A stretch of DNA of 64,000 bases. It comes from Clostridiales bacterium (GTDB lineage: Bacteria > Bacillota > Clostridia > Saccharofermentanales > Saccharofermentanaceae). The position numbers were made by a program, and so were the translations under genes. Of this stretch, positions 2,142 to 31,712 are shown one piece after another. Below the pieces are notes generated by a model, which was not told the DNA's origin, made no database searches, and saw only the letters and a list, made by a program, of their open reading frames with translations. Location: positions 1 through 64,000 of the forward strand of contig JAFWDK010000012.1 in the NCBI GenBank assembly GCA_017513085.1, read 5' to 3'. How positions within the stretch are numbered: position 1 is the first letter of the stretch; each line of letters starts with the position of its first letter.

Positions 2142-2156
2142 GAGGAGGAGAAAGTT

Positions 2157-2390: not shown

Positions 2391-2401
2391 GGTATAGAAA
2401 A

Positions 2402-2788
2402 ATGAAACTACATCATATCGGAATAGCTACAACGAACATAGAGGATACAATCGAGAGGCTGAAGAATAATACTGATATAGAAAGCGTAAGTCAGACCGTG
2501 TATGATCCTGAGCAGAACGCAAACCTGTGTATGGTTAAGATCAAATATGGAACGGACATCGAACTGATCCAGGGCGAAGTAGTAAGCAAAATGATTAAAA
2601 AAGGACAGTATCTTTACCATCTTTGTTGGGAAACTGAGGATATCGAAGCTCAGATTCAGCAACTGATCGATGCCGGAGGAATGGTCGTAACCCCTCTGAA
2701 AAAATCAGTGCTGTTTGACGGGCGACGTGTAGCATTTGTTATGACCAACCTGGGATTAACCGAATTGGTCGAGTCCTACTTGCAATAA
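2402..2788 (+). CDS. VOC/glyoxalase family protein (methylmalonyl-CoA epimerase-like)
   Basis: MKLHHIGIA, IELI, YHLCWE, TELVE metal-ligand pattern; start moved to ATG 2402. Confidence 0.85.
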   Translation: MKLHHIGIATTNIEDTIERLKNNTDIESVSQTVYDPEQNANLCMVKIKYGTDIELIQGEVVSKMIKKGQYLYHLCWETEDIEAQIQQLIDAGGMVVTPLKKSVLFDGRRVAFVMTNLGLTELVESYLQ

Positions 2789-2811
2789 TATATTAATACG
2801 GAGAAAGTGTT

Positions 2812-3543: not shown

Positions 3544-3573
3544 CACGTAGTAAAGAGAATTAGGAGAGTAAAA

Positions 3574-5409: not shown

Positions 5410-6731
5410 AAAATGTGATCCTGACGACAAACCTGACCGGCGGCGATGTATTGCCGTTTATTCGCTTCGGCAGACTTCTTAGCGAAGAAGGATATAAAGT
5501 CTCAATCGTTACGCACTGCATTTATGAAAAGACGGCGTTGCAGAACGGATTGGATTTTTATGCAGCGGATGATTTGGAAGAATACGAAGCGATGAGTCGA
5601 GATCTATGTTTGCTCTCTGATCCGATAAATCATAAGGATGATTATGTAAGGTTCAATGAGAAGTATCATGGAAAAGAGCAGCTTTTGCGCGAAATAAACA
5701 TTCTGGACAGCTTATGTGATGATGAGAGTGTAATCATCACAAGGTATCGAACAGGCATTTCCGGTATGTTAGTAGCTGAGAAAAGGTCACTTCCGTATGC
5801 GCCTTTGATCCTTGCACCAAATTATTTCTCGCACATGGAACTTCATAATCAGATCATGGGAAAGGAAATGGCGGAAGAGATCAATAAGGTTAGACAGTCG
5901 TTGGATCTGGAACCGATCACTGACTGGAAGGACTGGCTGTATTCTCCCAGACTTTTCTTGTGTGGTTGGCCGGAATGGTTCGCTCAACCGGATGAGACAT
6001 GGCCAGATAATACCCTGAGTATCGGTTTTTTGGAGAGAAAAGAGGACGATGTTTTCGGCCCTGAATATGATGAAGTGTTTGGTTTTATTGACTCTGCTCA
6101 TCAAGAAGGGAAGAAGGTCGTCATAATCACTGGAGGAAGCAGCAGAATCTACAGTAAGGAACTATACACAACGTCTATTCAGGCATGCTTGTTGGCCAAT
6201 GTAAATGCGATCGTAGTTACTCCGTTTAAGGATTATGTGCCTGATGATCTTCCAGATTCGATGATGTGGGCAAAGAATATCCGACTTGCAAAGATAATGA
6301 ACCGAGCAGATCTTATCATTCATCATGGAGGCATGGGCACGATAAATGAGTCTGTTGATGCCGCGATCCCTCAAATAATTATGCCGCATCTTATTGACGG
6401 ACCTGATAATGCAGACCGTCTCGCGAGGTTGGGATTAGCTCAGAAGTTTTCGCCCAAGCAGTGGGATCCAATACTGATTGCGAATGCTATATCCAATACG
6501 TACTCGGATCAAATACACGAGACATGTTTGAAATATCAGAAAATCAATGCAGAGGTATATGGCAGGAAGATCTGGAGAGATGCTATTTCAAAAATCCCCC
6601 CATATTCTTTACCAAAGCAAAAATCATCAGTTTCCGACAGCCCTGCATCAAATGACGCACTAAAGCCTAAACTGACAAAGCAGCAGCTCATGGAGATAAT
6701 CAGGAAGCGAAAAGAAAAAGGTGGACAATAA
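5406..6731 (+). CDS. GT-B fold family 1 glycosyltransferase
   Basis: N-terminal GGDVLPF, C-terminal HHGGMGT...PQIIMPH..DGPDNA nucleotide-sugar motif; ATGA overlap with upstream A-PCP gene. Confidence 0.88.
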   Translation: MKNVILTTNLTGGDVLPFIRFGRLLSEEGYKVSIVTHCIYEKTALQNGLDFYAADDLEEYEAMSRDLCLLSDPINHKDDYVRFNEKYHGKEQLLREINILDSLCDDESVIITRYRTGISGMLVAEKRSLPYAPLILAPNYFSHMELHNQIMGKEMAEEINKVRQSLDLEPITDWKDWLYSPRLFLCGWPEWFAQPDETWPDNTLSIGFLERKEDDVFGPEYDEVFGFIDSAHQEGKKVVIITGGSSRIYSKELYTTSIQACLLANVNAIVVTPFKDYVPDDLPDSMMWAKNIRLAKIMNRADLIIHHGGMGTINESVDAAIPQIIMPHLIDGPDNADRLARLGLAQKFSPKQWDPILIANAISNTYSDQIHETCLKYQKINAEVYGRKIWRDAISKIPPYSLPKQKSSVSDSPASNDALKPKLTKQQLMEIIRKRKEKGGQ

Positions 6732-6781
6732 GTTCGTGGTGGACTTTAAAATGTGTTCTGGATTCCGCCAGCCTGTCCATG

Positions 6782-6802
6782 CCACTAAAATTGTTTTAGT
6801 GG
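6782..6802. terminator. Perfect 9-bp hairpin downstream of the biosynthetic cluster
   Basis: CCACTAAAA-TTG-TTTTAGTGG. Confidence 0.4.
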
Positions 6803-6888
6803 AGACGTAGTTTGCGTTGTCAAATAAAGGATGAAAACTCTAATACAATTATATTGCAATATCTTTTTGAAAAATGGAGGTATAAACT

Positions 6889-7122
6889 ATGGATCTGAAA
6901 CTTTACAAATTTGACAGCTGCCCCTATTGCCAGAAAGTGTTCCACGAAATCGAAGCACAAGGAAGAACAGACATTGAATATAGAGACATTCGCGAAAACA
7001 AAGAGTATTACCAGGAACTGCTTCGAGTAGGCGGAATCGATCAGGTCCCCTGCCTATTTATCGATGGCAAACCACTCTATGAAAGCGACGATATCGTACA
7101 GTGGCTGAGAGAGCATAGGTAA
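6889..7122 (+). CDS. Glutaredoxin-like protein
   Basis: CPYC, QVPCLFIDG, YESDDI; GGAGG RBS. Confidence 0.93.
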   Translation: MDLKLYKFDSCPYCQKVFHEIEAQGRTDIEYRDIRENKEYYQELLRVGGIDQVPCLFIDGKPLYESDDIVQWLREHR

Positions 7123-7134
7123 AGAAGAGATACA

Positions 7135-7217
7135 GTTCTAGCGTATAGATTAATTCATTCAAGAAGGCGGTTCCAAGATACAAGGGAACTGCCTTCTTTG
7201 GTTTTGACATATTATCG
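7135..7217 (+). repeat. 83-bp direct repeat copy 1 (contains intrinsic terminator); copy 2 at 11518-11600
   Basis: 4 mismatches versus 11518-11600; hairpin AAGAAGGCGGTTCC...GGAACTGCCTTCTT followed by T-rich tract. Confidence 0.92.
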
Positions 7218-7219
7218 AT

Positions 7220-7396
7220 GTCAGACTTTAAAAAACTCAAAAAACTAGTTGGAGAAATTAGAGTCTGGAGGCAGGTATGGACAGGAGCACCTATGAGATC
7301 CGGTTAGCACAGTAGATGAAGATCATGGAAGAGTGTTCGAGGCGCCCTAGTGAAATGACAGTAACAGCATCTACAAATCTCTATATCTCTGATTTG
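7220..7396 (+). mobile_element. IS66-family tnpA relic between two 21-bp direct repeats
   Basis: GGAGG RBS then ATG 7277: MDRSTYEIRLAQ*MKIMEECSRRPSEMTV resembles the IS66 TnpA N-terminus with Trp->TAG; flanked by TGGTTTTGACATATTATCGAT at 7199-7219 and 7397-7417. Confidence 0.65.
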
Positions 7397-7443
7397 TGGT
7401 TTTGACATATTATCGATCTGTAAACTTTCATGGTAAAACCTGA

Positions 7444-7501
7444 AAAATCGCTGCTATTCTAAGAACAGCAGTTTAAGAGAGCCTTGAGCAGGCTCTCTTA
7501 A
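7444..7501 (+). promoter_or_regulatory. Conserved two-hairpin leader/promoter element, copy A
   Basis: CTGCTATTC-TAA-GAACAGCAG followed by perfect 12-bp stem TTAAGAGAGCCT/AGGCTCTCTTAA; related copies at ~11636, 14530, 17905, 19961. Confidence 0.75.
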
Positions 7502-7533
7502 TATCAATTGTATTGGAGGAGGGTGATACTGTG

Positions 7534-10500
7534 ATGAAAAAGAAGATTTGGGGGGCAGGATGCATTATTGCTGCTTTAATTGCAGCTCCTATGTATGGAG
7601 CAAGTAAAGGGGTTGCGGTAAGAGCTGATGAATATGAACCTCAAGCTGGAGACGTGGCTATCAATGAAGAAAACTTCCCAGATGAATATTTCAGAGAGTG
7701 GATTAGTGAAAATCTTGATGCTACTCCAGATGGGGTTTTAACGAAGAGTGAAATAAGTCTTGTAACGAGAATCGACTGTAAAGACAGTCATATTGCTGAT
7801 CTTACCGGCGTGAAGTTTTTTACAAATCTTGAATCCTTAGATTGCCGTAACAATGTAATTGAAGAATTGGATTTGAGTGGAATGCCATATCTTGAAAACT
7901 TTTTGGCAGGCTACAATGTTCTCAGTAAAATCGATGCATCAAATTGCAAGAAATTGACTTTCTGGGGCATAAACTATGGTTATGGCAACAAGATGAGCGT
8001 TGAGGATACTATGTGGAATTGTACCGATAAAACAGGTATTTATGCATATAGTTATTATTATGGAAATCCATTAAAGTCAGTAGATTTTTCTGGGTGTATC
8101 AGTCTTGAGGTATTTGTGAATACAAACGATACACTTACTGAAGCTGATTTTTCTGGTTGCACCGCGCTCAAAAAGATTAATCTGACTAATAAGCAAATCG
8201 AATCGATAAACATAACTGGTTGCAGTAATTTGGAAGAAGTGCATTTGGCTGAAAATGAAATGCAAACTCTTGATTTGACTGGTTGCCAGAAGCTGAGAAT
8301 TCTTGAACTCTATTCTAATAAATTTGTGACTATAGATTTGACCCCATGTCCTAATCTGGAAGAACTTAACATAAATGCTAATCAGTTAAAGAATATAGAT
8401 GTTTCCTCAAACAAATTATTGAGACAATTAGTTTGTAAAGAAAACCAGTTAGTTTCGCTTGACGTAAGTAATCATGCGATGCTTGATGATTTTTCGTGCA
8501 GATTCAACAACATAAAGACACTCAACTTGAGTGGTTGCAAAAAGTTGACAGATCTATCGTATATTCACGAAGATAATCCGTTAGAGAGCCTGGACCTGTC
8601 AGATTGTATCAGTTTGAATGAATTCTCGATTAATGATACACCGCTTATTTCTGTTGACCTGAGTAGGTGTTCTGGACTAGTTAGGGTGGATCTGTCGAAT
8701 AATCAGCTTGAGGAGATTAGCCTGGACGGGTGTGATCATCTTCAGGAACTGAATGTATATAACAATAATCTTGAAGATTTGGATATTTCCACTTGTAAAC
8801 GACTGGAGACTCTTGATTGCAGACTCAACTATCTGACTAAAAAACCTTCTGCGAGCAATCTTACTGTTAAGTTTGATCCGCAGAAAATATTAGAGGCTCC
8901 TTCAGGATTCAAAGTTGAAACTGTCAGTGAAGAGAGCGTTACACTTGCTTGGGATGACGCAGGAGAAGACATACATTATGAGTTGTTCAGATCTGATTCC
9001 AAAGATGACGGGTACATAAGTATTTACAGTGCTGATCGTTGTACTTCATATACGGATGAGGATTTGAACCCTAATACAACATATTACTATAAGCTAAGAC
9101 TGTGGATATCTGTTGATAGAATAGTAATCGAAAGTCCTTTTTCTGATACTTTGGAAGCAAAGACAAAAGCACTTCCGACGCCTACTCCTACAGAGACACC
9201 GTCGCCAACACCAAATCCGGTAACTCCTACACCGACACCGGTAGTGAAAAAAACTGGTATTAAAATCGATGAAGAGCATTTCCCTGATAAGGCGTTCCGT
9301 AAATATGTTTCTGAGTCTATCGATAAAGATTCAAATGGATTGTTAAGTCAGGATGAAATAACTATTACTGATTTCATGGATGTCAGTGAACAGGGAATAC
9401 AATCAATCAAAGGAATTGAGTATTTTGCTGATTTAAAATGGCTTGGTTGCGAACATAATAGTATATCTACTATTGATGTAAGTAAAAATGCGAAACTAAC
9501 GAGTCTTTGGTGTGGAGATAATAAGATTACAGGACTTGTGATTAATCCGAATCTTATGTATCTTGAGTGCAATGATAATCTGTTAACGAGTTTAGATGTT
9601 AGTAAGAATAAAGAATTGGATGTGCTTGTAGCACATCACAATAAGCTAGCTTCGCTTGATATTTCAAACTGCAAAGTTAAAGGCGTTGTTGACGATGATT
9701 ATCTGGAGTTTGTAGAGAAAGAAGATTTCTATGCATACATTGATCCGGAAAAAAATGAGTATTATCTTTCTTTTGATAAGACTACAAAGATTATCGGTGC
9801 GAATGTTCCTGTCCCATCTACCGGATCTATCGCAGACTTCGTAGAGCGTCTTTATACGGTTGCGCTCGGTCGTCCTTCTGAGAAAGAGGGTAAAGAGTAT
9901 TGGGTAAAGGAAATCACAAATGGTAACAAGACCGGTGCTGATTGCGGTCTGTTCTTCCTAACAAGTGAAGAGTTCAACAACCGTGGCCTCAGTATTGAGA
10001 ACTTTGTAGAGACGCTTTACCAGACATTCTTCGGACGTGCTTCCGAACCGAATGGAAAAGCCTACTGGGTTGGTGAACTGAAGAGTGGAAGAAAGAGCAG
10101 GGCAGATGTCATCTGGGGCTTCATTGATTCGAAAGAATGGTGCAATATCTGTGCGGATTACGGAGTTAAGTCCGGCGCGCCGACAGCAAAAGCAGAGCAC
10201 GCATCGCAGAACGCGATCGATTTTGCAACACGTCTTTACACTTGCTGCCTCGGCAGAGCATCGGAAGAAGGTGGACTGAAGTACTGGTCTTTGGCACTTA
10301 CCAACCTTGAGCAGACAGGTTGCTCGGCAGCGAAGTTATTCTTTACCAGTGAGGAGTTTGTCAAATTCAAACTCAAAGACGATGAGTATGTAAGAAGACT
10401 GTACACGACGTTCATGGGCAGAGAGCCGGCTAAGGATGAGATAGCATACTGGATAGGCGAGATCAAGAAAGGAAGCCAGACCAGGTATAGCATTATGCAG

Positions 10501-10569
10501 TTCTTCGGTCAGTCGCCGGAGTTCACAAACATCTGTAAGAAGTACGGTATTGATCGTGGCACGATCTAG
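7534..10569 (+). CDS. Secreted LRR surface protein: signal peptide, LRRs, FN3, PT linker, second LRR block, three DUF4214-type repeats
   Basis: Signal peptide MKKKIWG..., NFPDEYFR cap, LxxLxxxxNxL repeats, FN3 (VTLAW..YTDEDLNPNTTYYY), FVERLYTVALGR...YW anchor repeats. Confidence 0.88.
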   Translation: MKKKIWGAGCIIAALIAAPMYGASKGVAVRADEYEPQAGDVAINEENFPDEYFREWISENLDATPDGVLTKSEISLVTRIDCKDSHIADLTGVKFFTNLESLDCRNNVIEELDLSGMPYLENFLAGYNVLSKIDASNCKKLTFWGINYGYGNKMSVEDTMWNCTDKTGIYAYSYYYGNPLKSVDFSGCISLEVFVNTNDTLTEADFSGCTALKKINLTNKQIESINITGCSNLEEVHLAENEMQTLDLTGCQKLRILELYSNKFVTIDLTPCPNLEELNINANQLKNIDVSSNKLLRQLVCKENQLVSLDVSNHAMLDDFSCRFNNIKTLNLSGCKKLTDLSYIHEDNPLESLDLSDCISLNEFSINDTPLISVDLSRCSGLVRVDLSNNQLEEISLDGCDHLQELNVYNNNLEDLDISTCKRLETLDCRLNYLTKKPSASNLTVKFDPQKILEAPSGFKVETVSEESVTLAWDDAGEDIHYELFRSDSKDDGYISIYSADRCTSYTDEDLNPNTTYYYKLRLWISVDRIVIESPFSDTLEAKTKALPTPTPTETPSPTPNPVTPTPTPVVKKTGIKIDEEHFPDKAFRKYVSESIDKDSNGLLSQDEITITDFMDVSEQGIQSIKGIEYFADLKWLGCEHNSISTIDVSKNAKLTSLWCGDNKITGLVINPNLMYLECNDNLLTSLDVSKNKELDVLVAHHNKLASLDISNCKVKGVVDDDYLEFVEKEDFYAYIDPEKNEYYLSFDKTTKIIGANVPVPSTGSIADFVERLYTVALGRPSEKEGKEYWVKEITNGNKTGADCGLFFLTSEEFNNRGLSIENFVETLYQTFFGRASEPNGKAYWVGELKSGRKSRADVIWGFIDSKEWCNICADYGVKSGAPTAKAEHASQNAIDFATRLYTCCLGRASEEGGLKYWSLALTNLEQTGCSAAKLFFTSEEFVKFKLKDDEYVRRLYTTFMGREPAKDEIAYWIGEIKKGSQTRYSIMQFFGQSPEFTNICKKYGIDRGTI

Positions 10570-10594
10570 AATTAGATAATTCAAGTAGTGAAGC

Positions 10595-10627
10595 AGTCCT
10601 CCTGTGGAAGCCATCCGCAGGAGGACT
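10595..10627 (+). terminator. Intrinsic terminator
   Basis: AGTCCTCCTGTGGA-AGCCA-TCCGCAGGAGGACT stem after stop codon. Confidence 0.7.
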
Positions 10628-10750
10628 TACATTTTCAATTGCCTTTGAAAAAATAAGTGTTTAAGCTTATCCATAACACACATCTTTCTTGGAATTCTGG
10701 GTGCGGTATAATAACTATAATGTGATTATGCGATACGGAGAATAAGTTGA

Positions 10751-11506
10751 ATGTTTGGAAAAGAGAATCATATTACGTTAGATGATTACAAATTGTTCTT
10801 GGAGATACTGTGGAACACCAACAGAACAGAAACAGAAGCTGTGCAAAAAGCAGTAGAGTATTTCCTGTGGGCGCTTTTCGGGCTTTCTTCTGACGTCAGC
10901 GTTGTTGATGTACATAACGATAACATAATTACTTCTAAACATGATCCGTCACGCTTTTACCTCTTGCGTGGTATTGAAGCTAAGAAAGAATCACTTACAA
11001 AAAAGCGAATGACAGAGAAGACCCGGGAAGATATAAAGTCACGATATGAAACTGCCCAGAATGAGTTTGCAAAAAGGAAAAACATGTATATGGGTGGGGA
11101 CGATAACGATAGTTTTTACTCAGGTCCGCCGGATCTGATGGTTGTGAAGAACTATAACTATGAAAACATTGAACATGGAAATGGTACGATTTGTTTTCTG
11201 GTAGAAACAAAAGAGTTTGAAGAAGATTTGAAAAAGATTCAGGAAAAAGATTCTAAGTTTTCACAGATTTTCTCACATATGACGCAAGCAAACAACGTCG
11301 TTCTTACTAATGGAAAAATGTGGATACTATATACACAGAAATCAAATGATCATCCGAACTATGACGAATGGAAACAAGAAGTATTACAGAATTCAAAGGT
11401 GTTTGAACTCTGGAATGACAAGAACGAAAAGAATACCGAAAAGTTTGAAGAGTTGTGTGAGACACTAAAAAATCTGGCGGCCAATACAAACAAAGTAACC
11501 TGTTAA
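10751..11506 (+). CDS. Stand-alone PD-(D/E)XK nuclease-like protein (HsdR N-terminal-like)
   Basis: PPDLMVV...FLVETK...Q...VVLTNGKMWILY motif series; TATAAT at 10707 and GGAG RBS. Confidence 0.6.
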   Translation: MFGKENHITLDDYKLFLEILWNTNRTETEAVQKAVEYFLWALFGLSSDVSVVDVHNDNIITSKHDPSRFYLLRGIEAKKESLTKKRMTEKTREDIKSRYETAQNEFAKRKNMYMGGDDNDSFYSGPPDLMVVKNYNYENIEHGNGTICFLVETKEFEEDLKKIQEKDSKFSQIFSHMTQANNVVLTNGKMWILYTQKSNDHPNYDEWKQEVLQNSKVFELWNDKNEKNTEKFEELCETLKNLAANTNKVTC

Positions 11507-11517
11507 TCTTGCATATT

Positions 11518-11600
11518 GTTCCAGCGTATAGATTAATTCATTCAAGAAGGCGGTTCCGAGATACAAGGGAACGGCCTTCTTTGGATTTGACATATTATCG
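11518..11600 (+). repeat. 83-bp direct repeat copy 2 (terminator)
   Basis: Matches 7135-7217 at offset 4383. Confidence 0.92.
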
Positions 11601-11628
11601 TTCTGTAAACTTTCACGAAGAAAAGGCC

Positions 11629-11692
11629 AAATTCGCTACTATTCTGATATTCTATGTTTAACGAAAAGAAAGCCTTGAGCAGGCTCTCTTAA
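11629..11692 (+). promoter_or_regulatory. Conserved leader element, copy B (first hairpin degenerate)
   Basis: TCGCTACTATTCT...AAGAAAGCCT-TGAGC-AGGCTCTCTTAA. Confidence 0.7.
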
Positions 11693-11723
11693 TCTTGATT
11701 GTATGTGGGAGGGGAATGAATAT

Positions 11724-14405
11724 ATGAAAAAAGCAGTGATAGTGACGGCATTGGTCGCATCTGTAACATTTGCTGTTTCTTCAATCAACTTGTTTGCTAA
11801 GAAGGTGGCCTATGCAGACGAAAATATAGTATATCCGCAGGCGGACGTGGCAATTGATGAGAAGAATTTCCCAGATGAGTATTTTAGAAAGTATGTATTG
11901 AATAATTTTGATCAAAATCACGATGGTACTCTTTCTGAAGCAGAGATTGCTGAAGTTACGAGAGTGGTTTATGAAGGTAAAAATGTAAAATCGCTTAAGG
12001 GAGTGGAATTTTTTACTGAACTAAAGGATTTGTGTTGTTCTAATTGTCAATTGACGAGTTTGGACGTGAGCAAGAATACGAATCTTACAGAATTGGACTG
12101 CAGATATAACCAGCTGACTAATCTGGATGTGAGCAAGAATGCGAATCTTACAAAATTGAAATGCGGTTCTAACCAGCTGACTAATCTGGATGTGAGCAAA
12201 AATACGAAGTTGGAAAATTTGAATTGTTATGGAAACCAACTGACTAATCTGGATGTGAGCAACAATCCGAATTTGATAGACTTTGATTGCTCGGAAAATC
12301 AATTGATAAGTCTGGATGTGAGCAACAATTCGAAGTTGGAAAACTTGACTTGTTTGGTAAACCAACTGACTAATCTAGATGTGAGCAACAATCCGAAGTT
12401 GAGATTCTTTAGTTGCAGGGAAAATCAATTGACAAGTCTGGATGTAAGCAACAATTTGCAGTTGAAAGTCTTGTATTGTGGTAAAAACAAACTGAAAAAT
12501 ATAGATTTAGGTCAAAATTCAAATCTGGAAGTATTGGGGTGCGAATTTAACCAGCTGACGAGTTTGGATCTTAGCAAACTTGGTTATTTGGATGCTCTGG
12601 TATGTGATAATAATCAGATTGATAAACTCGATGTTTCGAACTGTACGGAATTAATATCGCTGTGCAAGAAATTTGGTGTTCAGCAGAATATAACCGGAAT
12701 GTGTCAAGTGGCACACGAACAAGAATATCTTTTTTTCTCGGTCGATTCAGTTGTGAAGATGACACCAGAGTTATTCGTACCCATAATGCCAAATTCAATG
12801 AGTGTAGAAATTGATCTTTCAAATGAAGGTATTCCGCGTAATGGAAGTGATGATCCGATTCATGCATGGAATGCTTTATGGTATTTGGATATGGTGTATG
12901 ACTTGTTCGATAGTTACTATGATAGAGGTATTACGTCAACAGATTTAGATCGCGATGGTCATTACGATGTGGATGAATTCTATAATGGAGATTTTTACCT
13001 TAAAAAATCAGCTTCCTGTAACATCAAAGATGAATTTGTTTTTAAGAAAGACCAATTGAAAGATACGATCTACAAAGAAATTGCAATTGTATTTGGTGAG
13101 CATTATACAATATCGTTTGATGCAAATGGCGGAAGTGGAGTTATGGATTCGAGAAGGCTATTCGATGGAAAAGAGTTTGTACTCCCAGAATGTGAGTTTG
13201 CTGCACCGGAAGGAAAAGAATTTGACCGATGGAATCTGGGTGACCCCGGTGTTTCTGTTAAGATTACTGCCGATACCACGCTCAAAGCACAATGGAAAGA
13301 TATAATTTATTCAGTAAAAGTAACAACTGACGGGCATGGAACTGCGCTTGCTTCAGTAGATAATGGTGCGATGGGTACAGAAGTCACATTGAAGACACAG
13401 CCAAATGATGGCTATAAGTTTAAAGAATGGCAGGTCATATCTGGTGGAGTTACAATTAAGGATGATAAGTTCGTGATTGGTACTGAGAATGTAGAAATCA
13501 AGGCGTTTTTTGAAGCAGTATCTTCAAATCCTACTCCGAGCGTATTTCCAACGCCGCCAGCGGTCCCTGCAACTCCAACTCCAGTAGGGCAAACTCCTAC
13601 TAATGTTCCTACTCAGAATCCTACACCAACACAGCAGCCTACACCCGCTCCCTCCAAAGGCACTATCGCCGATTTCGTTGAGCGTCTTTACACGGTAGCT
13701 CTTGGGCGTGCATCCGAGAAAGATGGTAAAGAATTCTGGGTTAAAGAGATCACAAATGGTAACAAGACCGGTGCTGATTGCGGTCTGTTCTTCCTAACAA
13801 GTGAAGAGTTCAACAACCGTGGCCTCAGTATTGAGAACTTTGTAGAGACGCTTTACCAGACATTCTTCGGACGTGCTTCTGAACCGAATGGTAAAGCATA
13901 CTGGGTTGGTGAACTGAAGAAAGGATCGAAGAGTAGAGAAGATGTTATTCGTGGATTCATCGATTCTACAGAGTGGTGTAATATCTGTGCGGATTACGGA
14001 GTTAAGTCCGGCGCGCCGACAGCAAAAGCAGAGCACGCATCGCAGAACGCGATCGATTTTGCAACACGTCTTTACACTTGCTGCCTTGGCCGTGATCCAG
14101 AAGACGGAGGGCTGAAGTACTGGTCACTTGCCCTGACAAACTTGGAGCAGACAGGATGCACAGCAGCAAAAGAATTCTTCATGTCACAGGAGTTCGTCAA
14201 CCTTAAACTGAAGGATGACGAGTATATCAGGAGACTCTATACGACGTTCATGGGACGTGATCCTGAATCAAGCGAGATCGCATACTGGACGGGAGAAATC
14301 AAGAAAGGCACGCAGACCAGGTACAGCATCATGCAGTTCTTCGGTCAGTCACCGGAGTTTACGGAAATCTGCAAAAAGTACGGTATTGATCGCGGAACAA
14401 TCTGA
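11724..14405 (+). CDS. Secreted LRR surface protein with InlB B-repeat/Flg_new-like domains, PT linker and DUF4214-type repeats
   Basis: Signal peptide, NFPDEYFR cap, 21-aa LRRs (NQLTNLDVSKN), YTISFDANGGSG, GYKFKEW, same C-terminal anchor as 7534-10569. Confidence 0.88.
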   Translation: MKKAVIVTALVASVTFAVSSINLFAKKVAYADENIVYPQADVAIDEKNFPDEYFRKYVLNNFDQNHDGTLSEAEIAEVTRVVYEGKNVKSLKGVEFFTELKDLCCSNCQLTSLDVSKNTNLTELDCRYNQLTNLDVSKNANLTKLKCGSNQLTNLDVSKNTKLENLNCYGNQLTNLDVSNNPNLIDFDCSENQLISLDVSNNSKLENLTCLVNQLTNLDVSNNPKLRFFSCRENQLTSLDVSNNLQLKVLYCGKNKLKNIDLGQNSNLEVLGCEFNQLTSLDLSKLGYLDALVCDNNQIDKLDVSNCTELISLCKKFGVQQNITGMCQVAHEQEYLFFSVDSVVKMTPELFVPIMPNSMSVEIDLSNEGIPRNGSDDPIHAWNALWYLDMVYDLFDSYYDRGITSTDLDRDGHYDVDEFYNGDFYLKKSASCNIKDEFVFKKDQLKDTIYKEIAIVFGEHYTISFDANGGSGVMDSRRLFDGKEFVLPECEFAAPEGKEFDRWNLGDPGVSVKITADTTLKAQWKDIIYSVKVTTDGHGTALASVDNGAMGTEVTLKTQPNDGYKFKEWQVISGGVTIKDDKFVIGTENVEIKAFFEAVSSNPTPSVFPTPPAVPATPTPVGQTPTNVPTQNPTPTQQPTPAPSKGTIADFVERLYTVALGRASEKDGKEFWVKEITNGNKTGADCGLFFLTSEEFNNRGLSIENFVETLYQTFFGRASEPNGKAYWVGELKKGSKSREDVIRGFIDSTEWCNICADYGVKSGAPTAKAEHASQNAIDFATRLYTCCLGRDPEDGGLKYWSLALTNLEQTGCTAAKEFFMSQEFVNLKLKDDEYIRRLYTTFMGRDPESSEIAYWTGEIKKGTQTRYSIMQFFGQSPEFTEICKKYGIDRGTI
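12045..12485 (+). repeat. 63-bp tandem repeats encoding LRR units
   Basis: Units start at 12045, 12108, 12171, 12234, 12297, 12360, 12423 (AACCAGCTGACTAATCTGGATGTGAGCAA-like). Confidence 0.9.
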
Positions 14406-14427
14406 TCACAAACTAAGTATTATCTTT

Positions 14428-14484
14428 ATGAGGCCATCTGCACTACATAAGTGTGGGTGGCCTTTTTAACAGAAAGTTAACAAA
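14428..14484 (+). terminator. Intrinsic terminator, duplicated at 17814-17870
   Basis: GGCCATCTGCACT-ACATA-AGTGTGGGTGGCC-TTTTT. Confidence 0.85.
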
Positions 14485-14522
14485 TAAATCTGTAACTGCC
14501 CCAAACGGCGGATTCTCCTAGG

Positions 14523-14582
14523 AAAATCGCTGCTATTCTACGAGTAGCAGATTAAGATAGCCCTTAACAGGACTATCTTAAT
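14523..14582 (+). promoter_or_regulatory. Conserved two-hairpin leader element, copy C
   Basis: CTGCTATTC-TAC-GAGTAGCAG then ATTAAGATAGCCCT-TAAC-AGGACTATCTTAAT. Confidence 0.75.
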
Positions 14583-14611
14583 TCAATCTTGTGAAATGGG
14601 GTGTTACGAGA

Positions 14612-17600
14612 ATGAAATGGGTTAAGAATTTCCTACGTGGAGCATTTGCAGTAGCATTGTCTCTTTGCATATTGCTTGGAGTAGCATATAAAACAAATGT
14701 TAATGCTGTTGCTGTATCCGATATTCAAGCTTTGCTGAGTACAAAAATGACTGAGAATGGATTTAAACCAGGACAGTCGCTTTCAGAATCAAATTGCTGG
14801 AAATTTGTTAATTCGCTTTGTAGTTATCTTTATAAGCATGGACTACCATCTCAAATGCCCAGTAAATATGAATTTTATAGAACAAGCAATAGATTTCATA
14901 CAGGTTGGGAGGATAACTATATCCAGGTTGGAAATACATTGACAATAGCTGATGGAACCTTAAACTCTACTTCGTTAACGAATCTCCTTTTACAATCCCA
15001 ACCTGGTGACGTTATTCAGATGAATTACAATCGAGATAGCGGAGATGATTTTCATACTTTAATGATATATTCTATTTCTAATACTGGTGCGATTTTTTAT
15101 CATGCAGGTTCAATAGTATACTTTGGGGGCAACGGTTTTTGGGGAACGAAAGGAACCGAAATACCATGGGCAACTGTATGGAGCATGTTTGGTCAATCAA
15201 ATGACGGTATTAGTATTTATCGTTCAAAGAGAGTTACAGGAGGCCAAACACCGTCTAACGATCCACCGACGATTTCTGTTTCTGGTTTCAATGCGCCGAC
15301 AAATCTCAATGTTGGTCAGTCTTTCGGTCTTTACGGAACAGCAACATGTTCGCCTGGCGTTATTTCACAGGTTGAAGCCAAGGTACTTAATTCCTCGATT
15401 GGAATAACGGTATACCCGGGTTCCTCAGCATTTAATGTCCGTAGTAGCTATTCTGGAGGCAATGTAAATAATGCAATCGCCTTCAATAAGTTATCTGCAG
15501 GTTCATATACTCTGTACTATAAGATAACTGCTCAAAATGGGAATAAGACAACAGTCAAGGAACTGTCTTATCCGTTTACCGTTGGATCAGTAACTCCTAG
15601 TACTCCGGAAATCTCGAGTATTACTGCATCTAAAACGGCTACTTTATCAGGAGACACAGTTACTATCAACTGGACTACGAAAAATGCGGGGTCAGTGTGG
15701 CTCCATGTATGGAAGGACGGACAACCGGAATACTTTTCAGAAGGACAGGGGAGTAATACTTCCAGAGCTATAACTTTGAATGGCGCTGGAGTCTATGAAG
15801 TGAAACTCACACCATATTCAGGGCAAGGATATACAGGAACTGAGGGCAGTTACGCTTCTGTTTTGATCTATGTTTATAATGCGATTACAGATCCATGGAT
15901 AACTGCTGATAAGACAAATGTTGTGGTCGGCGAAACAGTAACATTCTCGTTTGGCGCGAATAATGCACAGCTTTATTGCTTGGGATTTGATAAAGAAGGC
16001 GTCGGAAGAATCTGGACGCCTGACTGTGGGACACAGACGACCTTTGCTACTGCTTTTGATTCTCCAGGAACGTACACGGTTTACGCCTCTTGCTACATCC
16101 CTGATGTACAAAGCGTTGATACGAGCAAAGTAACAATTAATGTCAGTCCAGATTTCTCGATGATTCTTTCTTGTGGGGATTCTGTTGAATATGGGGAACC
16201 TTTCACAGTGAACTGGACACCGGTACAGGGTGCAGTTCGTTATAGAGTCGAGTTTTACTGCAAAACACGAAGTAAAAATGGTTTTATAGTATATTACGAC
16301 TATGAAACTACGAAAACATCATATTCTTTAAACGCCCATTTGGCGGGGGGACTTGCATACGATTTCTTCTCCCAAGATTTCTATGAAGATTACTCTGTGG
16401 GCATTTATTCCGTGGATAGTAATGAAAAGAGCTCTTTCTGTGGAAATCTTCCTCTGAGAATTACCGCGCCCTATGTTGAAACTCCACAAATGAGTGTCCA
16501 GAGTGTATCCAATCAGTCATTTATTTTGAAATGGAATGCAGTTGTAGATGCCGAAGCATATGTTCTGTATTTTAGATTGCCTTCGGAGGAAAAAACTCGA
16601 AGTGCATATCATTCCAAGGATACAACTCTTGAGATAAATCAGGAAATGGCACTAAAACAATACGGAAAAGAATTGATACCGGGTGAAACATATTGTGTAA
16701 GAATAGCTACTTTTAAGAAAGTAGAGGGAGAAGAAGGGAGAAGCTCTGCACGATTTCGCTCAGATATGAGCGAGGAACTCATGATTACTATTCCGACGGC
16801 TACGCCTACGCCAACTAAGGCACCTACTAAGGTGCCGTCAAAAGCACCCACTAAGGCTCCAACTAAAGCACCTACAAAAGTACCAACAAAAAAGCCTGTA
16901 ACACCAACGCCGACGAAGAAAGCGACACCTACGCCTACTAAGAAGGTCACACCTACAAAGACACCTACGAAGACACCGACAAAGATGCCAACTAAGGTTC
17001 CTACAAAGGTGCCGACTCAGAAGCCTACACCAACAAAAGCACCTGTCTTCAGTGATTTTGTAGAGAGATTGTACACTTGTGCGCTGAACCGTGCTTCGGA
17101 GCCGGGTGGTAAGAAGTTCTGGACAGATGAGGTAACGAGCGGAAGAAGAACAGGTGGCGATTGTGCAAGATACTTCTTGCTTGAGGCACCTGAGTTCATG
17201 AACCGAAATCTCAGCGTGGAGGATTTTGTAGAGACGCTTTATAAGACATTCTTTGATCGTAAGTCCGATGTAGCCGGAAAGAAAGGCTGGGTGGACGCGA
17301 TCAAGTCCGGAGCGATGTCACGAGCCGTGGTCGTTGAGAATTTTATCGAGTCAACTGAATGGTGTAATATCTGTGCTAAATACAGCGTTAAGTCCGGTGC
17401 GAAGTACCACAAAGCAACAGTTGCATCGCCGAATTCAATCAGCTTTGCGACAAGGCTGTATACCTGTTGCCTGAAGCGTAGTGCGGATGCAGACGGTGTA
17501 AAGTACTGGAGCTTAGCTCTGACCAATCTCGAACAGACAGGCTGTTCGGCTGCTAATTTCTTCTTCACGGGACCAGAGTTTACAGCTCTGAAGACATCCC

Positions 17601-17791
17601 CTGAAGAGTATGTAAGAAGATTGTACACAACGTTCATGGATAGAAATGCCGATGAGGGTGAGGTCACATACTGGGCAAGCAAGATCCGCAATAATGAGAT
17701 GAGCAGACTTGCTGTGCTTCAGTTCTTTGGCCAAAGCGAAGAGTTTACAAATATCTGCGCGAAGTACGGTATCGATCGTGGAACGATCTGA
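14612..17791 (+). CDS. Secreted surface protein: putative CHAP/NlpC-P60-like N-terminal domain, Ig-like domains, PTK linker, DUF4214-type repeats
   Basis: Signal peptide; NCWKFVN...QPGDVIQM...HTLMIY Cys/His pattern; beta-rich middle; (PTK)n linker; FVERLYTCALNR anchor ending YGIDRGTI. Confidence 0.8.
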   Translation: MKWVKNFLRGAFAVALSLCILLGVAYKTNVNAVAVSDIQALLSTKMTENGFKPGQSLSESNCWKFVNSLCSYLYKHGLPSQMPSKYEFYRTSNRFHTGWEDNYIQVGNTLTIADGTLNSTSLTNLLLQSQPGDVIQMNYNRDSGDDFHTLMIYSISNTGAIFYHAGSIVYFGGNGFWGTKGTEIPWATVWSMFGQSNDGISIYRSKRVTGGQTPSNDPPTISVSGFNAPTNLNVGQSFGLYGTATCSPGVISQVEAKVLNSSIGITVYPGSSAFNVRSSYSGGNVNNAIAFNKLSAGSYTLYYKITAQNGNKTTVKELSYPFTVGSVTPSTPEISSITASKTATLSGDTVTINWTTKNAGSVWLHVWKDGQPEYFSEGQGSNTSRAITLNGAGVYEVKLTPYSGQGYTGTEGSYASVLIYVYNAITDPWITADKTNVVVGETVTFSFGANNAQLYCLGFDKEGVGRIWTPDCGTQTTFATAFDSPGTYTVYASCYIPDVQSVDTSKVTINVSPDFSMILSCGDSVEYGEPFTVNWTPVQGAVRYRVEFYCKTRSKNGFIVYYDYETTKTSYSLNAHLAGGLAYDFFSQDFYEDYSVGIYSVDSNEKSSFCGNLPLRITAPYVETPQMSVQSVSNQSFILKWNAVVDAEAYVLYFRLPSEEKTRSAYHSKDTTLEINQEMALKQYGKELIPGETYCVRIATFKKVEGEEGRSSARFRSDMSEELMITIPTATPTPTKAPTKVPSKAPTKAPTKAPTKVPTKKPVTPTPTKKATPTPTKKVTPTKTPTKTPTKMPTKVPTKVPTQKPTPTKAPVFSDFVERLYTCALNRASEPGGKKFWTDEVTSGRRTGGDCARYFLLEAPEFMNRNLSVEDFVETLYKTFFDRKSDVAGKKGWVDAIKSGAMSRAVVVENFIESTEWCNICAKYSVKSGAKYHKATVASPNSISFATRLYTCCLKRSADADGVKYWSLALTNLEQTGCSAANFFFTGPEFTALKTSPEEYVRRLYTTFMDRNADEGEVTYWASKIRNNEMSRLAVLQFFGQSEEFTNICAKYGIDRGTI
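16793..17045 (+). repeat. Low-complexity Pro-Thr-Lys linker repeats
   Basis: PTATPTPTKAPTKVPSKAPTKAPTK...PTPTKAP. Confidence 0.85.
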
Positions 17792-17813
17792 TTACAAGCT
17801 GAGCTATATATAG

Positions 17814-17870
17814 ATGAGGCCACCTACACTACAAAAGTGTGGGTGGCCGTTTTTACAGAAAGTTAACAAA
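17814..17870 (+). terminator. Intrinsic terminator, copy of 14428-14484
   Basis: GGCCACCTACACT-ACAAA-AGTGTGGGTGGCC-GTTTTT; stem differences preserve pairing (G-U versus Watson-Crick). Confidence 0.85.
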
Positions 17871-17898
17871 CTGATTTGTTCCCCGAAAGTATGGGCAT

Positions 17899-17959
17899 TT
17901 TCGACTGCTATCCTACGGATAACAGTTAAAGATTGACTTCACATGTCAATCTTTAACTG
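17899..17959 (+). promoter_or_regulatory. Conserved two-hairpin leader element, copy D
   Basis: CTGCTATCC-TAC-GGATAACAG and perfect 15-bp stem CAGTTAAAGATTGAC/GTCAATCTTTAACTG. Confidence 0.72.
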
Positions 17960-17978
17960 CTCTGTGTACGGGGAGGAT

Positions 17979-19127
17979 ATGAAAATGCGTAGATTTAGAA
18001 AAGTGAGCGTATTAGCTCTATCTTTGATGATGGTTTTTGAACTTGCTTCATGTGCAAAAGAAGAAAAAAAGAGCACAAGGGAAATTACCGTTGCAGCATA
18101 CAATGATTTTCCTACAACTGTAAATTCAAGTGATGATTACACAACAACTGAGACAGAACCTAGTGAAACGGAGACTGTTAACTATGAAGGTATCCTTGTT
18201 CAAAGCCTTCATACTGGTGATAGGTACAAATGGAAGAGTACCGGAACATACAAGTGTGACGCGTTTACCGTAAATCTGGACTTTATTGATCCTGAAACTG
18301 GTGCAATTACACACTTTAAGACGTTTTCAAGCGAGCAGACACACTCTTGCGGATACTATTATTCAGTAAGTGATAACGTTAACGAAGCCAGAACGCAGTT
18401 CAATGCTGATTATTCTGCCATGGTTGCGATATTAACCAAAGACGATGGAGCAGAACACATAGGGTGGATCGATGAAGATGGAGAGTTCTTTGATGTCTCT
18501 GAGAGAATAACCCACAAGAGTGATTTTGGATCTATAACAAAACATAGTCAGCCTTGCTTCTGGGGCGATTATATGTATTTTTACGATCAAACGGAGGGTG
18601 TTGAATGTATTAAGCGAGTTCCTCTTAATAACCTTCAAGAAAATACAGTAGAGTTGATGTGGAGCAAAAACAAAAGTAACGGCCATGTCTATCCGAAGCC
18701 GGATGGCAGCATCCCGGATGAACCATATTTTTATGAATACTCGACTGCGGACTCAGAATACGGAGCATATCCGATTCAATTCGGCGGGTGGATCAATACA
18801 AATGAATGTGTAGGCTCAGACAATGGCATGATCTATCGTTATAATCTCGAAGGGTTTTCGGGAAAACAGAGTACAGGTCATTGGTATAGCAGTAAAACCG
18901 AGCTGATTCCAAATGTAAGCGGAAGAGTTAATTTAGTCCCTGTTCTTTCACCAGATGGGGATAAAGTGGCATTTATCTCAAGTGTGAATGGAAAAAACGA
19001 GTTGTTTGTTGTTGATGCTTCGTGTGGAGAACCGAAAAAAATCGATACAGATTACAATTTTTCAGAAGTGGCGTTTATAGGGGGCAGGGTTGGTTTTATA
19101 GGATGGATAAGTAATGACAATGCTTGA
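17979..19127 (+). CDS. Lipoprotein with C-terminal TolB/PD40-like beta-propeller motif
   Basis: GGAGG RBS; lipobox LASC; Thr/Glu-rich linker; PVLSPDGDKVAFIS. Confidence 0.75.
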   Translation: MKMRRFRKVSVLALSLMMVFELASCAKEEKKSTREITVAAYNDFPTTVNSSDDYTTTETEPSETETVNYEGILVQSLHTGDRYKWKSTGTYKCDAFTVNLDFIDPETGAITHFKTFSSEQTHSCGYYYSVSDNVNEARTQFNADYSAMVAILTKDDGAEHIGWIDEDGEFFDVSERITHKSDFGSITKHSQPCFWGDYMYFYDQTEGVECIKRVPLNNLQENTVELMWSKNKSNGHVYPKPDGSIPDEPYFYEYSTADSEYGAYPIQFGGWINTNECVGSDNGMIYRYNLEGFSGKQSTGHWYSSKTELIPNVSGRVNLVPVLSPDGDKVAFISSVNGKNELFVVDASCGEPKKIDTDYNFSEVAFIGGRVGFIGWISNDNA

Positions 19128-19175
19128 TAGTTGTCTGATGAATTTAGAATCATAAGCATTTATGGAGGGAATAGT

Positions 19176-19880
19176 ATGGGACGCACAGGATATCCTAGGA
19201 GAAGGAAAACATATGCTCCGGCGACAGCTGGTGCTTTGGGACTTATGCTCGCTATAGTTATCAGCGCAGCAGCAGACAGCAAAGTGCTTTTCTTTATAGC
19301 ATGGATCGTATGCACGCTTCTTGTATATATTATTTGCAGTAAGATTGAAGATGCGATCTATCACGCAGCAGATAAAACTCGTGAGATTATCGAGAATAAG
19401 ATTTCCGGGTCGTCGGAAGGATCGTCGATTCCATCAAGTAAAGAAGTTGAAGTACCCCAAAAGACGAAAGCCAACCCGGGTACAAACGAATGGAAATGTG
19501 TTTGTGGAAAGATCAACCAAAACTACACAGGACAATGTGTCTGTGGCGTGAGGAAAAACGATGCGGCAAAACGAATAGAAGAGAATAAGGCTAAGGCCAT
19601 AGCAATAGCAAAGAAGAAGAATCTCCAGCTTCCCAAAGAGGAAGAAGCCAGCAAAGATGAATTATTGACAGTTAGCAAACAGTTCGAGAAGGAGAATGAG
19701 TGGAGATGCGTTTGTGGAAAGAAAAATCCTAAATTCGTAGGTACTTGTCAGTGTGGTATGCGCAAAAATGAGGCTATCAAACGTCGTGCAATCGCACTTC
19801 AGAAATCCAGAGAGATCATGGAAGCGAAAAAAGCAAAGGCACAAGGCGTAGATCTTCAACAGGACGAATTCGAGACTTAG
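19176..19880 (+). CDS. Membrane protein with two Cys4 zinc-ribbon repeats
   Basis: Two TM helices; WKCVCGKIN...CVCG and WRCVCGKKN...CQCG; GGAGG RBS. Confidence 0.75.
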   Translation: MGRTGYPRRRKTYAPATAGALGLMLAIVISAAADSKVLFFIAWIVCTLLVYIICSKIEDAIYHAADKTREIIENKISGSSEGSSIPSSKEVEVPQKTKANPGTNEWKCVCGKINQNYTGQCVCGVRKNDAAKRIEENKAKAIAIAKKKNLQLPKEEEASKDELLTVSKQFEKENEWRCVCGKKNPKFVGTCQCGMRKNEAIKRRAIALQKSREIMEAKKAKAQGVDLQQDEFET

Positions 19881-19954
19881 AAATTGATAATTCTCAAACT
19901 AAGCAGTTGTGACTGACTGTCTAAATGATATCACATTAATAATATAACAGTATC

Positions 19955-20012
19955 AAATCGCTGTTATTCTGCGATTAGTAGATTAATAGTGGATTGAGAA
20001 TCGTTTAACTTA
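19955..20012 (+). promoter_or_regulatory. Conserved leader element, copy E (second hairpin decayed)
   Basis: AAATCGCTGTTATTC-TGC-GATTAGTAG-ATTAA. Confidence 0.55.
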
Positions 20013-20124
20013 AGAAGTTTCCTCAGTATCTTTATTCTTTCTTTGTTTCCGGTTGACGATGTTTTTACTTTTCGGCATTAAGATGGAATCATGAAGCCGA
20101 AGAAGTGCTTCGAAAAAGAAGAAA

Positions 20125-20391
20125 ATGACTATGAAAGAGTATTTTGAAAGCCTTAAGACAGAAACAAACTGGTTTAAACTGTTCCGCCCAATCTGCATCG
20201 GAATGACGATCCTCCTCGAGATTGGGACACCGATCATCTTATATATTATTCAGGTCCTGATCAAGCAACAGGAACTGGATCTGCCGAGCTTCTGGTACGG
20301 ACTGATCGTCGCCTTCCTCTACAGCGCCATTCTTGCCTGGGTAATAAGCAGTGTGCATCGAAAAGAACAGCAAAAGCAGGAGAATAAGTAA
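20125..20391 (+). CDS. Small two-TM membrane protein
   Basis: 88 aa, two hydrophobic helices, charged C-terminus. Confidence 0.65.
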   Translation: MTMKEYFESLKTETNWFKLFRPICIGMTILLEIGTPIILYIIQVLIKQQELDLPSFWYGLIVAFLYSAILAWVISSVHRKEQQKQENK

Positions 20392-20470
20392 TCTGACATT
20401 TTACTTGAACGATATTTTCAAGATAGTACATCGTTCAACATAAAACAAAGAAAGTATAGCTATACATGTG

Positions 20471-20502
20471 GAAAAGCCAGGCCCGAAAGAGTCTGGCTTT
20501 TC
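20471..20502. terminator. Bidirectional-type intrinsic terminator
   Basis: GAAAAGCCAGGC-CCGAAAGA-GTCTGGCTTTTC. Confidence 0.75.
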
Positions 20503-20627
20503 TATTCCTGCTGTTACTTGATCGCTTGTTGCGATCTTGTGCCGATTCAGGCGGCGGAAGTCTGTTTTCTAACCTTCCGCTGGATCCGCTTCGGATTCTT
20601 GCCAAGTGCTTGCACAGCAGTTGTCAT
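20502..20627 (-). pseudogene. yjdF/DUF2992 family gene remnant
   Basis: Minus strand reads MTTAVQALGKNPKRIQRKVRKQTSAA*IGTRSQQAIK*QQE*, matching the YjdF NPKRxQR...GIGTKSQQALK motif with in-frame stops. Confidence 0.7.
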
Positions 20628-21039
20628 AGCGAACAGACAACTTGTGAGGATAATATAACTGGGTGGAGGAGAGAGGGGTGGGTCGCGTAGTTTAATTGCC
20701 TCATCAAAACATTCAATTGCCTCGTTTGAGGTGAAAATGAGGCAATTGAATGGGGGGATGAGTATGTTGAAACAAGGATAATGTATTCCACAAGATTGGA
20801 GGGATAACTTATTGTAGAAAAAACAGGTCTAACGTTTAGATAAGTAAAATCAAGAAGGTGGAACCGAGATTTATTGAATGCAAAAATGTAGTACGTTATC
20901 GTTAATTCTGAACTATCAAAAAAGAAATTACAAAATGTAAACGATTATTAAATTCTTTTGCTTAGCTATTTAGATAAATTGAGTTTTGGCTATACTATGT
21001 TTAGAGGTTACATTTTTTTGTGATTGGAAATGTAAAAAG

Positions 21040-25893: not shown

Positions 25894-25895
25894 TT

Positions 25896-26951: not shown

Positions 26952-26966
26952 TGTGGAGGAAGTATT

Positions 26967-27680: not shown

Positions 27681-27690
27681 GGGGAAAAAT

Positions 27691-28314: not shown

Positions 28315-28315
28315 T

Positions 28316-30159: not shown

Positions 30160-31712
<1,553 letters not shown>

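Follow-up and report, generated by a model that had tools for sequence, protein, structure and literature searches.

The described systems closest to the element reported here are extended −10 promoters, operators of dimeric repressors, 5′ stabiliser stem-loops and leader RNAs that join a protein-binding hairpin to a terminator. The element is a repeat of 70-90 bases per copy with two inverted repeats, stem 1 and stem 2. It occurs in five copies (A to E) in an array spanning 7.4 to 20 kb of a 64,000-nucleotide (nt) stretch from a Clostridiales bacterium (assembly GCA_017513085.1, contig JAFWDK010000012.1, positions 1 to 64,000, forward strand), referred to below as the window. The key positions of a −10 hexamer are T-A-n-n-n-T. 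Extended −10 (TGn) promoters are defined by TG at −15/−14 together with TAnnnT, with transcription starting 6-8 nt past the hexamer, and canonical sigma-70 promoters by a TTGACA-like −35 box 16-18 nt before the −10. The dyad operators of repressors that bind as helix-turn-helix dimers generically overlap −10/+1. The leader of B. subtilis aprE reportedly acts as a 5′ stabiliser stem-loop. In Lactobacillus, the messenger RNA (mRNA) of the surface-layer gene slpA is stabilised by a 5′ stem-loop (PMC10221546).

The element resembles each of these systems in some respects and departs from each in others. As in extended −10 sigma-A promoters, TG stands one base 5′ of a TAnnnT hexamer in all five copies (in copy B by way of a second hexamer), the base 7 nt past the hexamer is a purine, and there is no usable −35. 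It differs from them in that the hexamer reads TATTCT or TATCCT, not TATAAT, lies inside a 21-bp palindrome and follows a conserved AAATCG, and in that the start site is a predicted one. Like operators placed over −10/+1, stem 1 is a 9-3-9 dyad centred approximately at −6 from the predicted start, although a symmetric double change in copy D is unexpected for independent half-sites; we know of no operator consensus that matches the palindrome. The stabilisers of aprE and of slpA share with the element a stable hairpin near the (here predicted) 5′ end, whose pairing is conserved while the sequence varies, a strong Shine-Dalgarno (SD) sequence after it and an association with genes for abundant secreted or surface proteins. 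The element has no sequence relation to them, is common to at least four adjacent genes, and would leave 5-6 unpaired nt if the predicted start is correct. RAT/PRD antiterminator, ANTAR and LoaP leaders also place two adjacent hairpins in the leader of envelope or secreted-product genes; in the element, however, the hairpins do not overlap, stem 2 is without a U-tract, no gene for such a regulator occurs among the window open reading frames (ORFs) scanned, and Rfam gives no match.

The repeat is a real 5′ control module, reused here and, in the window, confined to this locus. No described RNA family matches it, and its mechanism is most likely of a known kind. In particular, we propose, at a probability of about one half, that the element is a shared promoter-plus-leader module of tandem secreted/surface-protein genes, in which an extended −10 box embedded in a 9-3-9 palindrome is followed by stem 2 as a leader hairpin.

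Copies and distribution of the element

Stem 1 starts at 7451, 11636, 14530, 17905 and 19961 in copies A to E, all of which are intergenic and on the + strand; these are the five sites named in the original prediction, and a covariance model finds exactly these. Each block is built from an A-rich tract, TCG, CTGCTATTC, 3 nt and an imperfect complement of the preceding arm (stem 1), followed after a gap of 0-1 nt by a longer TTAA...TTAA hairpin (stem 2) and by 22-33 nt with a strong SD and the start codon. A covariance model whose only input was copy A, run without filters over both strands of all 64 kb recovered copy C with an E-value of 1.4e-11, B with 4.7e-5, D with 8.2e-5 and E with 0.008, and detected no element beyond the five. 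At ≤1 mismatch, the 13-mer TCGCTGCTATTCT has 4 matches in the window against 0.12 expected, a count that 0/100 shuffles reach; relative to this 13-mer, the core of copy D carries a 1-nt insertion (TCGA) and one substitution. Profile searches with nhmmer recovered the same copies and, reverse-complement echoes aside, no other in the window on the + or the − strand. Copies outside the locus, whose absence the original prediction had taken as counting against it, are thus lacking within the window.

Copy A (7444..7533) is the conserved island that runs from AAAATCG to the start codon. It contains TGCTATTCT at 7452-7460, stem 1 at 7451-7471 (8 Watson-Crick (WC) pairs and 1 A.C), a conserved A at 7467 that would be +1, stem 2 at 7473-7501 (12/12 WC) and the SD GGAGGAGGG at 7516-7524. 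In copy C (14523..14611), TGCTATTCT lies at 14531-14539, stem 1 at 14530-14550 (8 WC and 1 U.G), the A at 14546 and stem 2 at 14552-14581 (12/13 pairs, with one C.A). Copy D (17901..17978) begins with TCGA at 17901 and has TGCTATCCT at 17906-17914, stem 1 at 17905-17925 (8 WC and 1 C.A), the A at 17921 and stem 2 at 17926-17956 (12/12), which can also be drawn as 15 pairs over 17923-17959 that compete with the base of stem 1. In copy B (11629..11723), TCG at 11633 precedes a first hexamer without TG (TACTATTCT, 11637-11645), a patch in place of the stem 1 3′ arm creates TGATATTCT at 11645-11653, and stem 2 at 11666-11690 keeps 9/10 WC pairs with a 6-nt insertion. Copy E (19954..20019) is decayed: it has TGTTATTCT at 19962-19970 and a weak stem 1 at 19961-19981 (6 WC, 2 G.U and 1 U.U), and the outer TTAA...TTAA frame is all that survives of stem 2. 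The two-hairpin architecture originally described for all five copies is therefore found in A, C and D, stem 1 having been lost in B and stem 2 in E.

None of the Rfam 15 families matches the 64 kb at gathering score, in line with the original prediction, and the 8 matches obtained at E-values up to 10 over 6700-21000 all belong to eukaryotic microRNA or long non-coding RNA models (E-value ≥0.33, far below the gathering score). A degenerate 26-mer fitting copies A, C and E, which has low power for diverged copies, was scanned against 185,579 representative genomes other than the source genome and gave 5 loci, against ~4 expected by chance from a pattern-information estimate. Two of these (L001 and L005) are without the remainder of the element, L005 lying within a coding sequence that is Lon-like by eye, and the remaining three are in Bacteroidota and cyanobacterial metagenome-assembled genomes. 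Copies A and C had no blastn match among plasmids and phages; tblastn of the DUF4214 end against plasmids returned only proteobacterial proteins at 27-34% identity, which is uninformative on the upstream element. In the literature, the core motif strings met with primer coincidences only, and none of the papers listed for DUF4214, judged by title and the start of the abstract, dealt with an element of this type.

Predicted promoter signals and hairpins

Of all features, only the motif TGnTATYCT is retained in each of the five copies, as TGCTATTCT in A and C, TGCTATCCT in D and TGTTATTCT in E. In copy B the first hexamer has lost its TG (now TAC), and the same patch that destroys stem 1 makes TGATATTCT 8 nt downstream. 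The density of the motif in the window (12 matches against 4.9 expected, 5 of the 12 being element copies) puts the chance of such a 9-mer within ~20 nt of the B core at ~1e-3; local duplication could be an alternative source of this second hexamer. In stem 1, the positions that never vary in the 5′ arm and the first loop base read T-A-n-n-n-T, which are those that matter in a −10 hexamer. Moreover, the base 7 nt past the hexamer is A in copies A, C, D and E and at the second hexamer of B, and this A lies 6, 6, 5 and 6 nt from stem 2; in copy B the hexamer has moved downstream and the stem 2 base has gained an insertion, which together preserve this distance.

The surroundings of the copies also bear on where transcription can begin. 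Copies A and C are alike solely over 7444-7539 and 14523-14617 (75% over 97 nt by blastn), from AAAATCG to the first codons, and their flanks are unalignable by blastn elsewhere in windows of 600-800 nt. Since this similarity begins 11 nt 5′ of the hexamer and ends at the first codons, any promoter that the two share lies within the island. Intrinsic terminators with U-runs (fold z −4.4 to −6.1) stand upstream of each of genes A-D, so that each gene needs its own promoter. These are T1 (7164..7198, + strand), after a glutaredoxin gene; its paralogue at 11546-11580 (+), after the ORF at 10751-11506 (repeat family D9, 93% over 88 nt); T2 (14430..14464, +), the terminator of gene B, with a T5 run; and the T2 paralogue at 17818-17848 (+), after gene C, also with a T5 run (family D7, 81% over 139 nt). 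Both T1 copies are followed by CTTTGG(T/A)TTT and a TTGACATATTATCG box. A sigma-70 scan found no + strand −35/−10 pair in the four intergenic regions upstream of A-D. Because TGnTATYCT is kept in 5/5 copies, the island starts 11 nt before the hexamer, terminators lie upstream and no −35/−10 pair is present, an extended −10 with a palindromic operator and a 5′ hairpin is favoured; it fits best of the three readings that the original prediction offered.

Several other signals in the same regions were considered and rejected. The TTGACA/TTAACA...ATCTGTAA boxes, whose TTGACA/TTAACA part stands 40-51 nt before the hexamer, were discarded by eye as a promoter, being without a −10 partner and at a variable distance from the core. 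Alternative sigma factors (extracytoplasmic function (ECF), sigma-I, sigma-D, sigma-H, sigma-54 and sporulation) were rejected by eye because no −35-like box occurs at a constant spacing, and a leader peptide was rejected, also by eye, because the 10-codon ORF that ends in the stem 1 loop of A has no counterpart in B-D. A minus-strand terminator was considered as well, since stem 1 of A (7451-7471) followed by CGATTTTT scored as terminator-like in that direction; the T-run is 4 in C and absent in D, and no minus-strand gene converges on the site. This signal is probably incidental at copy A, and it could explain the A-tract before TCG.

Both hairpins are present in three of the five copies only, namely A, C and D (fold z −5.4, −6.6 and −7.2). 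The minimum-energy fold of A and C consists of two adjacent hairpins. The longer stem 2 of D, which a CAG/CUG extension brings to 15 pairs, takes the 3 outer pairs of stem 1 and leaves it with 5. Copy B is otherwise 80-93% identical to A (repeat families D9, D12 and D15); only 3/9 of its stem 1 positions pair, a 10-nt patch replacing the 3′ arm, and its stem 2 of 10 pairs includes one A.C (fold z −0.4). In copy E, stem 1 does not belong to the minimum-energy fold.

Pair counts come from a model-fitted alignment of the five copies and are biased towards the structure. In stem 2, 87.7% of cells are paired, 6/12 pairs are changed on both sides and 3 never vary; no shuffle of 500 reaches its pairing score, and sliding the partner by 1-3 columns reduces pairing to 34-42%. 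Because the double changes keep pairing whereas shuffles and slid partners fail, stem 2 is, judged from this alignment, a genuine covarying hairpin and a structure under selection. Its outer 6-7 bp (TTAAGA...TCTTAA) are conserved in sequence, and the inner stem of D is entirely different and still fully WC-paired; the proposal that stem 2 varies between copies and yet stays paired thus stands. It ends 32, 33, 30 and 22 nt from the start codon in copies A-D, which agrees with the distance of about 20-30 nt given in the original prediction.

The term 'covarying', applied at first to the whole element, holds for stem 2 but not for stem 1, in which a single pair of 9 is changed on both sides (U-A to C-G, in copy D), 4 pairs never vary and 33/36 cells are paired. 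Of the compensatory and G-U changes once described for stem 1 of A, C, D and E, this double change and the G.U pairs of C and E are found; the others are mismatches, A.C in A, C.A in D and U.U in E. The free energy of stem 1 is −5.7 kcal/mol in A and D. Its 5′ arm is more conserved than its 3′ arm, and the 9-3-9 dyad is present in four of the five copies, with 30/36 positions WC symmetric across A, C, D and E. Over both stems the non-WC cells comprise 3 G.U, 4 A.C and 1 other; because an A.C mismatch would form a G.U wobble in the opposite strand alone, the non-WC pairs do not point to + strand RNA as the form on which selection acts. The palindrome of stem 1 is conserved and may act at the DNA or the RNA level; on these patterns it is better read as one that overlaps a promoter.

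In the proposed mechanism, the invariant core AAATCG-CTGCTATTCT would carry a −35-less extended −10 promoter of the sigma-A type, TGnTATYCT, with initiation predicted at the conserved A that falls within the 3′ arm of stem 1. Stem 1 would be mainly a DNA palindrome extending from about −16 to +5 relative to this start, and probably the operator of a putative dimeric repressor that would occlude the −10 and the start site. Stem 2 would be an RNA hairpin that begins 5-6 nt from the predicted 5′ end and stops 10-16 nt before the strong SD; most likely, it would protect the mRNA 5′ end as a stabiliser and be selected for pairing, not for sequence.

Several points weigh against this proposal. The hexamer TATTCT matches TATAAT at only 4/6 positions and has no −35, and nothing in a standard sigma-A promoter accounts for the conserved AAATCG that directly precedes it. 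The compensatory change of stem 1 in copy D fits an RNA or single-strand structure and not independent half-sites. No regulator gene was found in the locus: it contains no gene for a sigma factor or transcription factor, and the nearest response regulators are >18 kb off (two-component systems beyond 38 kb). From work in B. subtilis, 5-6 unpaired nt may exceed the limit for full 5′ protection, and the conserved sequence of the outer 6-7 bp of stem 2 would be needless in a pure stabiliser. All inference, moreover, is based on five related copies at one locus.

Alternative readings

If transcription began upstream of TCG, both hairpins would be part of the transcript, and the element could be a new protein-binding cis-regulatory leader RNA in which stem 1 serves for recognition and stem 2 as effector, co-regulating the surface genes. 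The two-hairpin folds of A and C and the low z of D agree with this, as do the one compensatory pair and three G.U of stem 1 and the lack of any Rfam match, which would make the RNA new; in D, where stem 1 is reduced to 5 pairs, the stem 2 extension against the stem 1 base hints at alternative pairing. RNAalifold also returns both helices, on an alignment (A6) that was fitted to that structure. However, such an RNA would need a non-conserved promoter, none being recognisable between the upstream terminators and TCG, and conservation between A and C starts only at AAAATCG. Stem 1 is marginal in A and D and unformed in E, and A.C mismatches (4) are as common as G.U (3). Copy B, without stem 1, keeps an intact ORF of 900 amino acids (aa), its SD and a rebuilt TGnTATTCT, and the greater conservation of the 5′ arm, at the TAnnnT positions, together with covariation at 1/9 pairs, further weakens the case; we regard a leader RNA of this kind as rather unlikely. 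A related possibility, to which we give slightly less weight still, is an undescribed leader RNA/operator system in which a dedicated regulator would recognise AAATCG-CTGCTATTCT and stem 1, whether in RNA or in single-stranded non-template DNA, and would switch the surface proteins on and off together, stem 2 again being the effector. It is also conceivable that stem 2 is a weak, factor-dependent transcription attenuator and that expression is set by read-through, given the stable 12-15 bp hairpin between promoter region and SD in A, C and D and, with the shorter stem, a trailing sequence that starts UUAAU or UUUAA. Intrinsic terminators have a G+C-rich stem followed by a U-run, which stem 2 does not show: a terminator scan lists no + strand site there (no ≥5 T in 8), and its tails have 4 U in 8 by eye, whereas the true terminators of the locus, T1 and T2, have clear U-runs and T2 is listed by the same scan. 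As no PRD, ANTAR or NusG-like antiterminator gene occurs among the 47 ORFs scanned and the two stems do not overlap, leaving no obvious alternative pairing except weakly in D, attenuation seems quite improbable.

The copies might instead be hitch-hiking remnants of segmental duplication or gene conversion, with incidental hairpins and the function of any promoter region. Entire intergenic regions are indeed paralogous, between A and B (blastn 63% over 520 nt and 89% over 101 nt) and between C and D (68% over 209 nt; repeat families D7, D9, D12 and D15), genes A and B agree at 89% in their DUF4214 ends, with 77 nt at 99%, which indicates that conversion is active here, and decay is visible in copies B and E. 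Against such an origin, A and C share the element alone amid unalignable flanks, stem 2 has diverged at half of its pairs and remains paired, with an inner sequence in D that is wholly its own, and the unrelated gene D keeps the full architecture and spacing; we consider passive descent improbable. Recombination sites for gene cassettes had been suggested in the original prediction; sites of this sort, which would mobilise or shuffle cassettes as integron attC sites or the target of an invertase do, find no support. The genes are in tandem and in the same orientation, each with a 5′ module and a 3′ flank that are both conserved, a decayed copy lies at the end of the array beside cas3, and a 21-bp direct repeat surrounds a 177-nt insert at 7199-7417, all of which would suit such sites. 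Integron attC sites have an adjacent integrase, stand at the cassette 3′ end and bear RYYYAAC...GTTRRRY cores. No integrase, recombinase or transposase domain was found by Pfam in the 47 window ORFs, no copies exist elsewhere in the window, and the 22-33 nt to the start codons with a fixed SD spacing is the geometry of a promoter or leader and not of a cassette end; the outward GTT...AAC of stem 2 (copy D, by eye) is also the reverse of the attC core order. A recombination site is accordingly a very remote prospect, and the promoter-plus-leader module remains the preferred reading.

Locus context and significance

Four genes follow the element at fixed spacing; the fifth envelope-protein gene that had been expected after copy E is lacking. 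Genes A, B and C, all on the + strand, encode signal-peptide proteins with leucine-rich repeat (LRR), fn3 or Flg_new domains plus a threefold DUF4214 at the C-terminus (Pfam). Gene A (7534-10569) has a signal peptide, LRR, fn3 and 3-4 DUF4214 units; gene B (11724-14405) has LRR, Flg_new and DUF4214; gene C (14612-17791) has a DUF4214 C-terminus. The A and B proteins are 89% identical over the last 253 aa and 32% in the N-terminal part, and those of A and C share a C-terminus of 60% identity with unrelated N-termini. At the DNA level, the DUF4214 modules at 9814-10567 and 13650-14403 (and 17192-17789) are 85-99% identical between A and B, including 77 nt at 99%. This mosaic, with an N-terminal LRR part at ~32% protein identity, points to gene conversion, or to the shuffling of domains on an anchor module that the genes have in common. 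Gene D (17979-19127, +) encodes a lipoprotein with a PD40-like beta-propeller and no DUF4214; the PD40 match is weak, with beta-propeller look-alikes from Bacillota. It is unrelated to A-C and still carries the full element at its usual spacing, which bears out the statement that the element precedes both DUF4214 paralogues and an unrelated lipoprotein. After copy E no gene stands where the spacing of the other copies would place it; the next ORF (20125-20391; 88 aa, membrane) begins 144 nt past the end of stem 1, and cas3 of the type I-E cas operon follows.

The intervals between these genes hold further features. Upstream of copy A, at 7199-7417, the 21-bp direct repeat TGGTTTTGACATATTATCGAT (7199-7219 and 7397-7417) flanks the 177-nt insert, and the corresponding sequence is uninterrupted in copy B; the insert contains an SD and two abutting mini-ORFs (7277-7315 and 7316-7405) with an in-frame TAG between them, and it resembles a fragment of a gene or the scar of an insertion. 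A 251-aa ORF (10751-11506) located between genes A and B has a TATAAT-type promoter of its own and lacks both a signal peptide and a Pfam match (E-value ≤0.1); by eye, it shows a PD...ExK-like motif (PPDLMVV ... FLVETK), possibly of a nuclease fold. The ORF at 19131-19880 is probably co-transcribed with gene D since it starts only 4 nt past the end of that gene. It has an N-terminal membrane segment, no Pfam family and a pair of almost identical Cys-rich repeats, W(K/R)CVCGK...CxCG, which resemble zinc ribbons.

On either side of the array lie other gene sets. A set of FkbH-like, thioesterase, adenylation-PCP and glycosyltransferase genes at 345-6731, a cluster of the secondary-metabolite or glycolipid type, is located upstream and is followed by the glutaredoxin gene (6889-7122). 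Downstream, a complete type I-E cas operon (cas3, cse1, cse2, cas7, cas5, cas6e and cas1) occupies 20986-30108, with Cas2 fused to a DnaQ/RNase_T exonuclease domain (29257-30108); approx. 700 nt beyond the operon is a short repeat array (30829-30980, period 61, 2.5 copies).

A 5′ control module is here reused on genes whose N-termini are unrelated. For motif hunting this is a caution, as a −10 box covered by a palindrome, with a leader hairpin behind it, can mimic a covarying two-hairpin RNA. Were a dedicated regulator to read the element, gut-type Bacillota would have in it a lineage-specific 'surface-protein regulon tag'. If the promoter-plus-leader module is correct, four large secreted or anchored proteins, the adhesin-like LRR/DUF4214 proteins and the beta-propeller lipoprotein, would be under one type of promoter-operator and mRNA-protecting leader. 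The four genes would then form a co-regulated surface regulon, and the 21-bp palindrome would provide a handle for finding its regulator.

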